This document shows, piece after piece, positions 31,343 through 36,113 of a DNA stretch of 64,000 bases. The notes beneath the pieces were generated by a model that had not been told where the DNA came from, ran no database searches, and worked only from the letters and a program-made list of their open reading frames with translations. Source of the DNA: a virus. Its lineage: Duplodnaviria > Heunggongvirae > Uroviricota > Caudoviricetes. The stretch lies in IMG/VR virus record IMGVR_UViG_3300016476_000987; one strand, given 5' to 3'. Position numbers and translations under genes: made by a program. Position 1 is the stretch's first letter, and the number at the start of each line of letters is the position of its first letter.

Positions 31343-31422
31343 GCCCTCTTGCTGAAATCGGTAGACAGGCCAGACTTAGGATCTGGTGCTTAGGCGTGTC
31401 AGTTCGAGTCTGACAGAGGGCA
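31343..31422 (+). tRNA. tRNA-Leu (anticodon TAG), type II
   Basis: Hand fold: acceptor GCCCTCT/AGAGGGC, D arm CTG-AAATCGGTAGA-CAG, anticodon arm CCAGA-CTTAGGA-TCTGG, 11-nt variable region, T arm GTCAG-TTCGAGT-CTGAC, A73. Confidence 0.9.
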
Positions 31423-31449
31423 CTTTCCCTATAAATAAATATTCGTAGT

Positions 31450-31614
31450 ATGATAACTAAATTAGTAACAGTATCTTCAGTTGTTATTGGAATTTTTTTT
31501 ATAATTGGAAGTACTTTTAATCACATTAATCCTTGGTTGGCCGTAGGATTATTCGTAGGTGTGTTGTATTTTGCAGCTCATAAAATAGACAAGATAATAA
31601 AAAAAGAAAAATGA
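31450..31614 (+). CDS. small two-helix membrane protein (54 aa, below track cutoff)
   Basis: MITKLVTVSSVVIGIFFIIGSTFNHINPWLAVGLFVGVLYFAAHKIDKIIKKEK. ATGA overlap with the SPFH gene start. Confidence 0.5.
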   Translation: MITKLVTVSSVVIGIFFIIGSTFNHINPWLAVGLFVGVLYFAAHKIDKIIKKEK

Positions 31615-32420
31615 AAAAAACAATCAGTCTTATCGCAGTCGTAGTTTTGTTCGTAGTATCCTCTTGCGAACGAGTAGCTCCTAATTATTACGGGGTATTG
31701 ATGGAAAACTTTGGTAAGTCCGGTAAATCTGACTACTCTCGTCAGCAGGGCCGAGTAAACACAATGTCTCCAGGTACGGAACTGTTCCAGGTACCGGCTT
31801 GGGAACAAAGGGCAAATTTCACTGATGATAATGGGAATGAAAGAGTATTAAAATTAAAAGCTTCTGATAACACAGAATTTTCTGCAAAGCCCATCTATTC
31901 CTATAAAGCTATCGAAAACAAAGTAGTAGACTTGGTATTCCAAAACTCACGCCTTGGCTCAGGAGACGGCTTTATGAGAGCCTTAGAAGACAACGTACTT
32001 GAGCCTCGAATGTACGACATTATTAAAGAAGAGAGCCGTAGATACACTACAGATACGCTTATGGCACAAGGTGGGGGCCTTTTGTTTGAGCAACGAGTTC
32101 AAGAGGTAATTCGTAAAGCCTTTGAAGATGCTGGTCTCCAGCTGGTCTCCTTCAGTTCTAACCTTGACTTTAGTGAGAAGGTGAAGCAAAAGATTGATAC
32201 TCGTAATGAGGTGAATACTAATATCTCTGTACTTGATCAGCAGATTGCAGAGCAGCGTAAGCGTAATGAACTTGCTGAGCTCCAAACCCAAGAAAACATT
32301 ATCAAGAGTCGAGGTATTACTGAAGAGCTGCTTCAGCAACAAGCTATTCAGAAGTGGAATGGCGTTCTTCCTTCTACCTGGTCTGGATCTAATCTGCCTT
32401 TTGTAAAAGCGATTAAGTAA
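31611..32420 (+). CDS. SPFH/band-7-like lipoprotein
   Basis: Lipoprotein-type signal MKKTISLIAVVVLFVVSSC. SPFH-like core followed by a C-terminal coiled coil (QQIAEQRKRNELAELQTQ). Confidence 0.5.
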   Translation: MKKTISLIAVVVLFVVSSCERVAPNYYGVLMENFGKSGKSDYSRQQGRVNTMSPGTELFQVPAWEQRANFTDDNGNERVLKLKASDNTEFSAKPIYSYKAIENKVVDLVFQNSRLGSGDGFMRALEDNVLEPRMYDIIKEESRRYTTDTLMAQGGGLLFEQRVQEVIRKAFEDAGLQLVSFSSNLDFSEKVKQKIDTRNEVNTNISVLDQQIAEQRKRNELAELQTQENIIKSRGITEELLQQQAIQKWNGVLPSTWSGSNLPFVKAIK

Positions 32421-32563
32421 AGTAAAAAGTACCTCGAACGCTTCCCGTAAGATCAGCGCACCAGCATGAGGTCTTGTTTCCACGTAAGTGAATAGCCCAA
32501 GGCATAAGCTATGGTGGAGTACCAAACCTCTCTTTGACTGGCCATCAAATGATGTTTGGATAT

Positions 32564-32651
32564 AGTCAGGCGACCTTGTGGTAAAGGTTTTAGGAGGGCG
32601 CATCTCTGTTATGCATAAATCCTCCCTTGGGTTCGAGTCCCTTCCTGACTA
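32564..32651 (+). ncRNA. non-canonical tRNA-like element 1
   Basis: Acceptor AGTCAGG/CCTGACT + A. D arm ACCT-TGTGGTAA-AGGT. Weak T arm (GGG-TTCGAGT-CCC). The central 37 nt fold as GGAGG..GCAT-CTCTGTT-ATGC..CCTCC rather than a standard anticodon arm. Confidence 0.5.
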
Positions 32652-32772
32652 CTGATTCAGTTTGCCCGTGGTAACGACTTGTTATAAGAAATTATAATTG
32701 GTTTCTGTGATCAAAATCCAAGCAATGTCTCACTGTTGTTTGGGCTAAATGTGAGGAAAAAACGGGATGTTT

Positions 32773-32875
32773 AGTCAGGTGGCGGAGTGGGCTAACGCTA
32801 ACTAGGAAGAGTCTGAGGGGTGGTAGCCTAGTACCAATACCCTGATGACCACAGGTTCGAATCCTGTCCTGACTA
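32773..32875 (+). ncRNA. non-canonical tRNA-like element 2
   Basis: Acceptor AGTCAGG/CCTGACT + A. Type II D arm GCG-GAGTGGGCTAA-CGC. T arm ACAGG-TTCGAAT-CCTGT. I could not form a 5-7-5 anticodon arm in the 51-nt centre (best helix ACTAGG/CCTAGT). Confidence 0.5.
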
Positions 32876-33005
32876 CAATTGGTTGCAGGTTTTGGAAACA
32901 CTGCGTAATGTCAAGTATAAATCCAGCGGCTACACTTGGTCCAGTAGCAGAGGGTCTTGCCCCAATTATTTTTAATTCAGTCCTGGCTACTTAACAAGTA
33001 ATTAA

Positions 33006-33431
33006 ATGGAGATAACAAAATATAATATTTGTGAAACTATTGAGAACTATCTTAAAGAATTAAAAGTAAGGTATTCTATTCTTGATCCAGATTCTAAAGG
33101 TTGCGTCTATGAGCTTTTCAGTACATCAATGTCAGGACATATTCAAGTTGAATATAATCTTGATGATGAGAATGATAGTTATTTTGTTTTGCAGTTTTAT
33201 ACAGCAGTAGATAACCTCGGTTATTCAATATACCATCAGGAATGGGATAATGAATGTGAAAATTGTGATTCTGTAGAAGGTGAAATAGATAATTTATTAG
33301 AGTCTGTTAAAAAAATAAATCAAGGAATTTCAAAAATATCTACAAAGATTGAACAAATAAAAGATCTATGTGGTGAATATGGGTTAGACTTTGATAGTCT
33401 TATAACATTAAATTATGATTTTGATTCTTAA
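33006..33431 (+). CDS. hypothetical acidic protein
   Basis: 141 aa with about 29 D/E against about 10 K/R by hand count. Confidence 0.55.
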   Translation: MEITKYNICETIENYLKELKVRYSILDPDSKGCVYELFSTSMSGHIQVEYNLDDENDSYFVLQFYTAVDNLGYSIYHQEWDNECENCDSVEGEIDNLLESVKKINQGISKISTKIEQIKDLCGEYGLDFDSLITLNYDFDS

Positions 33432-33454
33432 TAAATCTACTAAAACAAACAGTT

Positions 33455-33727
33455 ATGAAATCAAATAAAGAATACAGATTTGCCGACAATCCAAAAGAAA
33501 AAGAGTTTCACGATAAATTCAAACAAATGTTTGAAATATCAAACACTACAAGAAATTCATTATCGGCAATTATCTTTGGTTGGAAAGATGCTTCACAAAA
33601 CTATCCAAATGTATATTTAACTGATAAAGAAGAAGATATTTGCCTAAATCTTATACAATGGCTTGGCAGTCCTGTCGGTCAATCATTTCTTAAAGAATGT
33701 GGTTTTGATAACAATGAAAACAAATAG
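33455..33727 (+). CDS. hypothetical protein
   Basis: 90-aa ORF. Confidence 0.5.
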   Translation: MKSNKEYRFADNPKEKEFHDKFKQMFEISNTTRNSLSAIIFGWKDASQNYPNVYLTDKEEDICLNLIQWLGSPVGQSFLKECGFDNNENK

Positions 33728-33729
33728 TT

Positions 33730-35029: not shown

Positions 35030-35152
35030 AGTCAGGTGGCGGAATGGTAGACGCAGAGGGGTCAACATCCTCGAAATAGGGAGTATAAAAAAGTTGAAAT
35101 ATAGGTACCGCACACTCCAGACATCGTACAAGTTCGAATCTTGTCCTGACTA
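35030..35152 (+). ncRNA. non-canonical tRNA-like element 5 (tRNA-Leu-like, giant variable region)
   Basis: Acceptor AGTCAGG/CCTGACT + A. D arm GCG-GAATGGTAGA-CGC. Possible anticodon arm GAGGG-GTCAACA-TCCTC (CAA, but G32 and C37 are atypical). A 54-nt variable region contains GGAGT...ACTCC. T arm ACAAG-TTCGAAT-CTTGT. Confidence 0.55.
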
Positions 35153-35272
35153 CGAGGGGAAAGTAACCTAAAGAGAGCCTCAAATGGTGAATGTCTGTAG
35201 CTTATCTAAGCATAGCAGATTGTGACCGCCGGTAATGATCTCAGCAGGTGACACACGGGAGAGACCGTACAT

Positions 35273-35376
35273 AGTCAGGTGGCGATAATGGATATACGCA
35301 CCCTTAGTTCAGGGAGTATGGAAATATGAGGTAATGAATACCATACAATGTGCAAGTTCGAATCTTGCCCTGACCG
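35273..35376 (+). ncRNA. non-canonical tRNA-like element 6 (paralog of element 5)
   Basis: AGTCAGG/CCTGACC + G (A1-C72 mismatch). D arm GCG-ATAATGGATATA-CGC. Only CCCT-TAGTTC-AGGG sits where the anticodon arm should be. Variable hairpin GTATGG...CCATAC. T arm GCAAG-TTCGAAT-CTTGC. Shares GGGAGTAT..GAAATAT with element 5. Confidence 0.5.
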
Positions 35377-35507
35377 CGCAGAAATCCAACACAACGACGT
35401 GGTAGCCATTTTCGGATGGAGAGTAACCGTGAAGTAATAGTAGCGGAGCATACCCAAAAAAATGTTATCGGGACGTGCAATGGTTGACAGCCGGAAAGAC
35501 GGCAAAT

Positions 35508-35592
35508 GGTCAAATAGTGTATGGCGCACAGAGGAAGTAGTCGCAGCAATGTAGACCCGAATCGAGGGTGGGTTCGATTCCCAGTTTGACCG
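35508..35592 (+). ncRNA. non-canonical tRNA-like element 7 (different acceptor)
   Basis: Acceptor GGTCAAA/TTTGACC + G. D-like GTG-TATGGCG-CAC. T arm TGGG-TTCGATT-CCCA. No standard anticodon arm was found, only the hairpin ACCC-GAATCGA-GGGT. Confidence 0.4.
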
Positions 35593-35699
35593 CATATTCC
35601 CCTGCATAGTGCGGAATGGTGTGGAGTAATCAGGTAGGCGCACCCCAAAACCAGTAAGGTTATGAGAGGCAAAACAATTGTCTGACACTGGTAAAATCG

Positions 35700-35742
35700 T
35701 GACAGCGTGGAAAGACACCCTGACAGCGTGGAAAAGACACGC
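35700..35742 (+). repeat. tandem direct repeat (2 copies, 21/22 nt)
   Basis: TGACAGCGTGGAAAGACACCC followed by TGACAGCGTGGAAAAGACACGC, ending 4 nt before the CAT-anticodon tRNA. Confidence 0.8.
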
Positions 35743-35746
35743 AATT

Positions 35747-35820
35747 GGACCCTTAGCTCAGTTGGTTAGAGCAAATGACTCATAATCATTAGGTCCACGG
35801 TTCAAGCCCGTGAGGGTCCA
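35747..35820 (+). tRNA. tRNA with CAT anticodon (Met, or Ile2 if lysidine-modified)
   Basis: Acceptor GGACCCT/AGGGTCC, D arm GCTC-AGTTGGTTA-GAGC, anticodon arm AATGA-CTCATAA-TCATT, T arm CACGG-TTCAAGC-CCGTG, A73. From memory, the overall sequence resembles ileX-type tRNA-Ile2. Confidence 0.9.
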
Positions 35821-35827
35821 CAATACT

Positions 35828-35901
35828 GGTCTGGTAGCTCAGTTGGATAGAGCGGCAGCCTTCTAAGCTGTAGGTCATTGGTTCGAATCCAATCCGGATC
35901 A
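35828..35901 (+). tRNA. tRNA-Arg (anticodon TCT)
   Basis: Acceptor GGTCTGG/CCGGATC (two G-U pairs), D arm GCTC-AGTTGGATA-GAGC, anticodon arm GCAGC-CTTCTAA-GCTGT, T arm ATTGG-TTCGAAT-CCAAT, A73. Confidence 0.9.
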
Positions 35902-36113
35902 CTAATAACTCTTTATGGAAGACAACAAAGGTGAGTATTATTATATAGCAGTTAGAGTCTTAACTATGACTTTAGCTGCTATTCTTTTTATAGCACTAGT
36001 GGAAGGTTGCTAATTTATTTATTAAAAAATATTTTGATACATAAACAATACTTTGTAAATTCGACAAAATGTATAACAAAAACAAAAGGTTTAATTTTTA
36101 AATTGATTTTAGA

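Follow-up and report, generated by a model that had tools for sequence, protein, structure and literature searches.

Anticodon-less tRNA-like elements with a common frame and variable cores in the tRNA island of a large phage

On one strand of the viral record IMGVR_UViG_3300016476_000987 (Caudoviricetes; IMG/VR), between positions 31,343 and 36,113, small protein genes stand among tRNA genes and tRNA-like elements (TLEs), and the question raised by this locus is what purpose tRNA-shaped units without an anticodon serve beside small genes. The initial annotation, made from the DNA letters, had suggested the tRNA-punctuation principle known from organelles: RNase P and RNase Z would cut a single transcript at these units into monocistronic mRNAs with defined ends. 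We followed up this suggestion computationally in the whole stretch of DNA that was analysed, which is 64,000 nucleotides (nt) long and is called the window below, and in loci of other contigs, which are designated by L numbers. The locus between 31,343 and 36,113 forms the tRNA island in the genome of a large phage, kin of Flavobacterium phage immuto. The initial observation was confirmed in some respects and overstated in others, and the tRNA-punctuation interpretation was, overall, partly supported. On balance, we consider it probable that the TLEs are dual-purpose, combining a frame for processing and stability with an exchangeable functional core.

The island contains four ordinary tRNAs, six TLEs belonging to one family, and one divergent tRNA-like element; eight probable small genes lie on the same strand, as does at least one other structured RNA that is conserved (all features of the window given below are on the + strand). 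In the TLEs, a frame, AGTCAGGTGGCGGAATGGTAGACGC…TACAGGTTCGAATCCTGTCCTGACTAC, surrounds a variable core. The six units in the window start with AGTCAGGTGGCG... and end with ...GTTCGAATCyTGyCCTGACTAC. Their common 3' motif occurs eight times in the window, compared with 0.39 occurrences expected by chance, and all eight lie within 32.5–35.9 kb. For a covariance model of the frame, we used 100 copies, from the window as well as from other contigs. This model recovered the seven elements listed in the initial annotation, namely E1 (32564–32652; 52.1 bits), E2 (32773–32876; 66.4 bits), E3 (34420–34530; 63.7 bits), E4 (34820–34907; 56.1 bits), E5 (35030–35153; 63.6 bits), E6 (35273–35377; 54.7 bits), and the divergent E7 (35508–35593; 28.4 bits, E = 2.7e-6), and nothing besides them in the 64 kb. 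E7 has the acceptor stem GGTCAAA/TTTGACC, its fold shows acceptor, D-like, and T hairpins, and its flank is conserved with L039.

When IMG/VR was scanned with a pattern of the frame, at least 120 contigs were returned, and looser matching in those loci and the window gave 231 copies, 219 of them unique, with lengths of 67–172 nt. The frame was absent from 50,697 GenBank phage records, and in 185,579 prokaryotic genomes it was found only in five short metagenome-assembled contigs, two of which were assigned to Bacteroidota. The idea that the TLEs are copies of a host tRNA was rejected on account of this near absence from the 185,579 genomes, although the pattern demanded a long core and a short host tRNA with the same arms is possible.

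Across the 100 aligned copies, the frame is almost invariant around unrelated cores, and the invariance extends to the 5' strand of the T stem and to the D loop, both of which lie outside the search pattern. In L071 and L120, whose DNA polymerase is 55% identical to that of the window, the frame is identical letter for letter. The helices of the frame are 95% paired, covariation is seen in the D and T stems (double changes in 8 pairs, compared with 3.0 in shuffles), and the alternative acceptor stems GCTCAGG, AGCAAGG, GACCGGG, TGTAAGG, and TGCTGAA are fully compensated, so the arms of the frame are RNA helices. The elbow nucleotides U8, G18G19, and GTTCRA are kept, and unconstrained folds of E1, E2, and E4 show cloverleaf-like arms.

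In their acceptor, D, and T arms, the TLEs match a Leu-like (type II) tRNA at nearly every letter, and a core of approximately 35–75 nt replaces the anticodon and variable arms. A canonical anticodon loop (7 nt, U33, R37) was present in 5 of the 219 unique copies, leaving approximately 98% without one, and the cores of E1–E7 have other shapes than a 5-bp anticodon stem with a 7-nt loop. On this ground, we rejected the idea that the TLEs are genuine tRNAs whose anticodons are unusual or whose variable arms are long. ARAGORN called none of E1–E7 in the window, and for family members elsewhere it gave arbitrary anticodons or no call. With the Rfam tRNA models, E4 (26.1 bits), E6 (20.2 bits), and E1 (18.1 bits; tRNA-Sec model) fell below the 29-bit threshold, and E2, E3, E5, and E7 were unreported even at E ≤ 10; some family members elsewhere pass the threshold with 29–48 bits. 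Rfam searches at gathering and permissive thresholds reported only tRNAs in the window, and tRNAs and one transfer-messenger RNA (tmRNA) in 16 TLE-rich loci. No tmRNA, which would have tRNA-Ala-like ends around a tag-peptide reading frame and pseudoknots, was detected in the window by ARAGORN or Rfam; a phage tmRNA (Rfam, 68.5 bits) lies at L039 5724–6218, inside the tRNA/TLE island of a 94-kb viral contig. Some canonical-looking tRNAs carry the TLE acceptor and T arm, namely Lys-TTT at L030 13030–13101, Leu-TAG at L019 1457–1539, and Leu-CAA at L028 5644–5732, and these copies may be ancestors of the TLE family.

Recognition by RNase P, RNase Z, and the CCA-adding enzyme depends on the elbow and on the stack of acceptor and T arm and does not involve the anticodon. 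Since the TLEs keep the parts read by these enzymes, they should be excised like tRNAs. Host RNase P on the 5' side and RNase Z or an equivalent on the 3' side would excise every tRNA and TLE of the island, and this excision would necessarily separate the flanking small mRNAs and non-coding RNAs. The excised TLE RNA would start with AGTCAGG and end with CCTGACTACCA, where the genome reads ACAA or ACTA. T occupies position -1 in 80% of TLEs compared with 66% of tRNAs in the same genomes, C74 is found in nearly all TLEs and in 87% of tRNAs, and an A-rich trailer lies 3' of both. From sequence features of this kind, it is reasonable to infer that the TLEs are transcribed together with their neighbours and excised, and that the mRNAs are thereby cut. 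In the dual-purpose reading, the frame would be a handle for processing and stability, the core would be a separate cargo with its own function, and the cutting of mRNAs would be a built-in consequence that is probably part of the benefit and not the whole role.

The cores are conserved and exchangeable, and they behave as modules. E2, E3, and E5 are 88–93% identical to elements elsewhere that have unrelated flanking genes (E3, 90% to L082 9020–9133; E5, 88% to L039 4973–5098), and in this they are similar to true tRNAs. The pseudoknot-type core of E2 was found in 11 viral contigs in six versions, with covariation in two stems in a pseudoknot arrangement: stem a occurs as CTAGG/CCTAG, CTTGG/CCAAG, CTATG/CATAG, and TTAGG/CCTAA, and stem b as GGGG/CCC or GGAG/CTC. 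L130 has an E2-type core inside a frame with another acceptor, D stem, and T stem, and L100 and L048 have a common core with different acceptors. E1, which has an extended-helix core and a cloverleaf-like minimum-energy fold, is a paralog of E4 (77% identity over 73 nt). Because of the compensatory changes and the recurrence in different frames, the cores are expected to have a function beyond that of a cutting signal.

Six gaps of 120–150 nt in the window are not empty. One, at 32424–32563 (140 nt), is a conserved structured non-coding RNA directly 5' of E1, for which RNAalifold gave three hairpins with compensatory changes in 11 of 33 pairs; it has no Rfam match, and its homologs in L082, L121, and L035 each lie directly 5' of a tRNA-like gene. 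The segment 35353–35512 is conserved with L039. No hidden small open reading frames (ORFs) were found in these gaps by sequence reading and the ORF list. Single-sequence folding of the window gaps gave z-scores that were not significant, and the structure of 32424–32563 was seen by comparison only. Among the 184 distinct long spacers (60–260 nt) between neighbouring tRNA-like elements, an ORF of at least 25 aa was present in only 36, families of spacers recur between contigs, and the ends of a spacer pair with each other far better than with the ends of other spacers (-7.7 vs -4.9 kcal/mol, p = 3e-13). In their sequences, these conserved long spacers without ORFs look like many undescribed structured RNAs. 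The 140-nt RNA at 32424–32563 in the window belongs to this kind. Examples of long spacers, among many others, are L005 4119–4331 (-), L039 12118–12336, L028 5922–6092, and L026 2832–2963 (-).

The position of the TLEs relative to genes was compared with that of ordinary tRNAs. Of the 231 TLEs, 208 point in the same direction as the ORFs around them, with the distance from a stop codon to the TLE peaking at 0–10 nt and that from the TLE to an ATG at 10–20 nt. Within 40 nt upstream, 37% of TLEs and 15% of the ordinary tRNAs in those loci have an ORF on their own strand, and within 40 nt downstream 32% and 14% do, respectively, so contact with ORFs is approximately 2.4 times more frequent for TLEs than for ordinary tRNAs. 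The median spacer is 9 nt in pairs of tRNAs, of which 141 out of 237 are at most 40 nt apart, whereas it is 114 nt in neighbouring pairs that include a TLE, of which 31 out of 153 are that close.

Junctions with the same genes differ in their TLEs. The 83-aa ORF of the island (34559–34810), which has homologs in more than 80 viral contigs, has a TLE 9–10 nt downstream in the window as in L004 and L065, each with an unrelated core, and the same flanking gene pair in L144 and L145 encloses TLEs with different cores. Remnants of lost TLEs, consisting of the 5' stub GATAGTCAGGTG or of 3' halves TCGAATCCTGTCCTGACTGC, were found in L150, L155, and L160 after homologs of the 68-aa ORF (33730–33936 in the window), and in L090 on the - strand, 5' of the homolog of the 33-aa ORF. 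Judging from these loci, TLEs are gained, lost, and re-cored at gene junctions.

The order and spacers of the units in the window are as listed in the initial annotation, which had described small genes and RNA elements as interleaved one by one on a single transcript. With R for an RNA and O for an ORF, the series R OO RR OOOO RR O R O RRRRR O has 10 runs compared with 10.9 expected by permutation (P = 0.74), or 7 compared with 9.5 when the two tiny ORFs are left out, and one-by-one interleaving was thus not upheld. That every coding unit is bracketed by tRNA-like structures is correct if the four-ORF and two-ORF blocks are counted as single units and incorrect otherwise. The two tiny ORFs fared differently. 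The 33-aa ORF (34923–35024) is probably a real gene, as L090 has a homolog of equal length with 79% amino acid identity and 8 synonymous vs 7 non-synonymous codon changes. The 32-aa ORF proposed at 35915–36013 has no homolog, and it contains a 15-bp hairpin followed by UUCUUUUUAUA; this region is probably the terminator hairpin of the island and not a gene.

A single transcript is doubtful. The promoter consensus of Bacteroides and Flavobacterium is TTTG-N17-21-TAnnTTTG, and the full consensus occurs six times in the window, compared with 2.4 expected. A match lies directly 5' of each tRNA-Leu gene. The first promoter-like site (31305–31335; TTTG-N19-TACCTTTG), a full consensus match only, ends 7 nt before tRNA-Leu (TAG) at 31343–31423 (ARAGORN; Rfam tRNA, 53.7 bits). 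The second (34268–34298; TTTG-N19-TATCTTTG), a full consensus match, lies 29 nt before tRNA-Leu (TAA) at 34328–34414 (ARAGORN; Rfam, 54.4 bits). The -7 box (TAnnTTTG) is absent before E1–E7 and the ORFs between them, and it occurs within 70 nt of 8% of the 231 TLEs. Scans for sigma-70 promoters and generic terminators inside the region gave chance-level counts, the sigma-70 scan being ill-suited to this host group. The spacers that adjoin ORFs in the window measure 26, 28, 9, 15, and 5 nt, and spacers of 5–28 nt leave no room for promoters or terminators. In 28.5–50.5 kb of the window, the only repeats are the TLE frames and paralogous ORFs, with no repeated promoter cassette, such as one of -33 and -7 boxes before each small ORF. 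Downstream of tRNA-Met (CAT; 35747–35821; ARAGORN; Rfam, 71.7 bits) and tRNA-Arg (TCT; 35828–35902; ARAGORN; Rfam, 69.8 bits), a terminator scan and folding revealed a hairpin with a U-tract (35945–35992), a probable intrinsic terminator of the island, whose hairpin (35945–35982; 15 bp) has a dG of -21.7 kcal/mol and a z-score of -5.75, with none of 200 shuffles as stable. Co-transcription of the island units is likely from this arrangement. Two operons are the most economical and likelier reading, each opening with a tRNA-Leu and the second closing after tRNA-Arg: one transcript would start at each of the Bacteroidetes-type promoter sites in front of the tRNA-Leu genes, and the later of these transcripts would end at the hairpin terminator after tRNA-Arg.

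Several points weigh against the dual-purpose reading. Part of the frame invariance is ascertainment, as the loci were found by the frame pattern, and the near-invariance is itself unexplained because RNase P and RNase Z need no fixed acceptor sequence. As a class, the cores are barely more structured than the control (mean z -0.57 vs -0.24). The ORF–ORF spacers in the same genomes have a median of 15 nt, and the TLE–ORF spacers are no tighter. Since the ORF–ORF spacers are equally short, the tight contact points to compaction and co-transcription and not to special coupling. In samples gathered by ORF and not by TLE, a tRNA-like element lies within 40 nt downstream of 10 of 28 members of the 68-aa family and 5 of 68 members of the 83-aa family. 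Because the TLEs are optional and leave deletion scars, the neighbouring genes are independent of them and expressible without them. The window itself shows no excess alternation, an mRNA cut 5–9 nt past its stop codon would lack a protective 3' hairpin, and the processing, the promoters, and the terminator are all predicted on the basis of consensus and structure.

The TLEs could instead be stand-alone small RNAs housed in a tRNA island, such as tRNA-scaffolded effectors, decoys, or sponges for host enzymes or tRNA-targeting defences, with contact to ORFs arising from compaction and any effect on mRNAs incidental. We regard this as unlikely. It would account for cores that are conserved, structured, and modular and for CCA-ready tRNA-like ends as in true tRNAs, and it agrees with ORF–ORF spacers that are equally short and with TLEs that are optional beside a given ORF. 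However, head-to-tail packing would then be expected, yet short spacers are much rarer in TLE-containing pairs than in tRNA pairs, and ORFs flank TLEs more than they flank tRNAs by the factor given above. This explanation also has no nameable target or partner for the RNAs, and complementarity to the flanks was not found. In a separate comparison, cores as antisense to the adjacent leader or the end of the upstream gene were rejected, as cognate and non-cognate duplexes had the same energies.

Less likely again is the explanation closest to the initial annotation, in which the TLEs do nothing but mark the sites where RNase P and RNase Z divide one polycistronic transcript into monocistronic mRNAs, and the cores are filler without function. 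A conserved frame with a variable core and lost anticodon loops would be expected of such signals, as would a TLE position that is kept with a different core at orthologous junctions (the 83-aa family; L144 vs L145), and TLEs indeed avoid each other and prefer contact with ORFs. Filler, however, does not explain cores that are conserved at 88–93% between distant contigs, nor cores that carry compensatory changes and recur with different acceptor stems. Moreover, many TLEs adjoin non-coding units and not ORFs, most orthologous junctions have no TLE, and the island probably has two transcripts with no excess alternation of its units.

We consider it improbable that the frames are mainly DNA-level modules for recombination or homing, in which identical arms of 25–27 nt would allow co-infecting phages to swap the intervening small-gene or RNA cassettes, possibly aided by the neighbouring HNH endonuclease, as SegB aids the T4 tRNA cluster. 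Such modules would be comparable to the promoter/stem-loop cassettes of T4-type phages. The frame is near-identical between phages whose DNA polymerases share approximately 55% identity, the region is a mosaic of pieces common to different contigs, and the swaps of cores at the same junction and the scars of half TLEs are consistent with exchange. HNH genes lie beside several islands, and T4 SegB recognises T-arm DNA (PMC2330249). Against this, the covarying helices and the kept nucleotides of tertiary contacts argue for selection on RNA, and many intact target sites in its own genome would be ill-tolerated by a homing enzyme. That the TLEs are decaying, functionless pseudogenes from duplication of a tRNA-Leu gene is highly improbable, although type II tRNA-Leu has a similar D arm and frame and a few intact tRNAs exist among the copies (Leu-TAG in L019, Leu-CAA in L028, Lys-TTT in L030), because more than 200 near-invariant frames across phages with approximately 55% DNA polymerase identity, covarying D and T stems with acceptor variants, conserved cores, and consistent positions argue against decay.

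The dual-purpose reading may be extended, more tentatively, to the whole family: an uncultured phage clade, probably with Bacteroidota hosts, might have evolved anticodon-less tRNA mimics as universal handles. Its islands would then possibly be natural tRNA–cargo arrays from which host tRNA-maturation enzymes release many small mRNAs together with dozens of structured RNAs, namely the cores and the spacer RNAs of 100–220 nt, and the frame would also be a joint for cargo exchange between phages. If the prediction is true, variable small-gene regions are expressed via host tRNA-maturation enzymes and not via per-gene promoters, which the nearest cultured relative, immuto, appears to use at the same genomic place. 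The analysis also delimits a large RNA family that is recognisable by a simple frame sequence and that annotation pipelines overlook or mislabel as tRNAs with arbitrary anticodons. The conserved structured RNAs inside and between TLEs are targets for studies of RNA biology between Bacteroidota phages and their hosts.

The remaining genes of the island include an SPFH/band-7 lipoprotein gene (31611–32420; phrog_200, E = 3.5e-28), whose product is 54–57% identical to proteins of Bacteroides and Phocaeicola phages. A 54-aa hydrophobic ORF (31450–31614; ORF list) overlaps this gene by 4 nt and has no significant family. Four small ORFs (141, 90, 68, and 105 aa; ORF list) follow one another at 33006–34261 with no RNA elements between them; the 68-aa ORF has 40 relatives in viral contigs, and homologs of the 141-, 90-, and 105-aa ORFs were not detected. 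No Pfam or PHROGs family was found for the small ORFs of the island. Just 5' of tRNA-Met, at 35700–35740, the motif GACAGCGTGGAAA(A)GACAC forms a direct repeat, and similar GTGACAGCTCGGAAAGA motifs lie 3' of TLEs in L018, L005, L023, L001, and L082.

From position 1 to approximately 50.2 kb, all genes of the window are on the + strand, and the GC content is approximately 33%. The window encodes a family A DNA polymerase, GroEL, a ribonucleotide reductase-like protein, and a thymidylate synthase. Its nearest cultured relative is Flavobacterium phage vB_FspM_immuto, with a DNA polymerase that is 53% identical and a common gene order of polymerase, GroES/GroEL, glycosyltransferases, and HNH endonuclease, and the host of the window phage is likely a member of Bacteroidota. 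Searches with ORF 36114 and ORF 33006 and for an exact DNA polymerase match revealed no close relatives of the window phage. The HNH endonuclease gene (30304–30999; PHROG HNH endonuclease families, E = 1e-9) immediately precedes the island. Its homologs adjoin tRNA/TLE islands in L013, L039, and L071 and occupy the syntenic place in immuto, and the position of the window gene recalls T4 SegB, which cuts tRNA T-arm DNA. Further downstream, the tandem paralogous small ORFs 39950–40378 and 40567–40953 are 81–94% identical in stretches, and a 59-nt segment (41841–41899) inside the thymidylate synthase ORF is related to them (86%). This ORF exceeds the Pfam domain by approximately 125 aa, which suggests an inserted module.

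Non-decoding tRNA-shaped processing signals are established in organelles and used in synthetic biology, and we know of no description of them in a bacteriophage. The closest system described so far, the t-elements of plant mitochondria, consists of non-decoding tRNA-like structures that are cut by RNase P and RNase Z and define mRNA ends, and excised ones can gain CCA (PMC1920247). They resemble the TLEs in being non-decoding and tRNA-like, in their GGTTCRANYCC T arm, and in standing beside mRNA coding regions. They are, however, organellar, few per genome, and without a common frame sequence, whereas the TLEs belong to phages, have many paralogs, a near-invariant frame, type-conserved cores, and also non-coding neighbours, and their cutting is predicted.

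The tRNA punctuation of animal mitochondrial transcripts was reportedly described by Ojala, Montoya and Attardi in 1981. As in the island, tRNA-shaped units separate genes on polycistronic transcripts with almost no spacers. In animal mitochondria, the marks are functional tRNAs at nearly every junction, whereas in the island they are mostly non-decoding and optional, and blocks of ORFs are left uninterrupted.

Among phages, the tRNA cluster of T4 encodes the stable RNA species I and II. To our knowledge, a role of these species as separators of mRNAs has not been described. The T4 cluster also contains small ORFs and the homing endonuclease SegB (PMC2330249). It resembles the island in its small ORFs, its stable RNAs other than tRNAs, its endonuclease gene, and, since T4 transcripts are matured by host RNase P, its predicted processing; it differs in having two such RNAs and no family with a common frame.

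A tRNA module also acts as a handle, from which processing enzymes free a neighbouring RNA cargo, in the tRNA–miRNA units (TMERs) of murine gammaherpesvirus 68 and in synthetic polycistronic tRNA–guide RNA (gRNA) arrays. These are eukaryotic polymerase III units or engineered ones, with a hairpin or guide as cargo outside the tRNA, whereas the cargo of the TLEs may be both outside and inside, in the core.

A different solution is known from the PeSL units of T4-type phages, which are per-gene promoter cassettes in arrays of small early genes. In immuto (L126, NC_055915.1, 20900–36230), we found approximately 20 unannotated promoter-like cassettes, AGTTGC-N19-20-TATATTTAGGTATCAATAATTAAAAC, one before each small ORF, and no tRNA-like element in the 50 kb searched. 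The PeSL and immuto cassettes are like the TLEs in being a repeated short unit between small accessory ORFs, and those of immuto are syntenic, 3' of the HNH gene. The immuto cassettes are promoter-like (AGTTGC-N19-20-TATATTTAGG) and not tRNA-like, whereas the window has tRNA-like RNAs in their place and no more than two promoter-like sites.

A survey of IMG/VR reported candidate structured RNAs described as 'tRNA or tRNA-like', partly called by ARAGORN (PMC10690425), and some of these candidates may be members of the TLE family. Compared by description only, the survey text consulted mentions no common frame, missing anticodon, position between ORFs, or proposed function. No description of a TLE-like phage family was found in the literature searched, and no Rfam model for one was found. 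The principle is known, and what appears to be new is its phage setting, the fixed-frame family with modular cores, and the spacer RNAs that go with this family.

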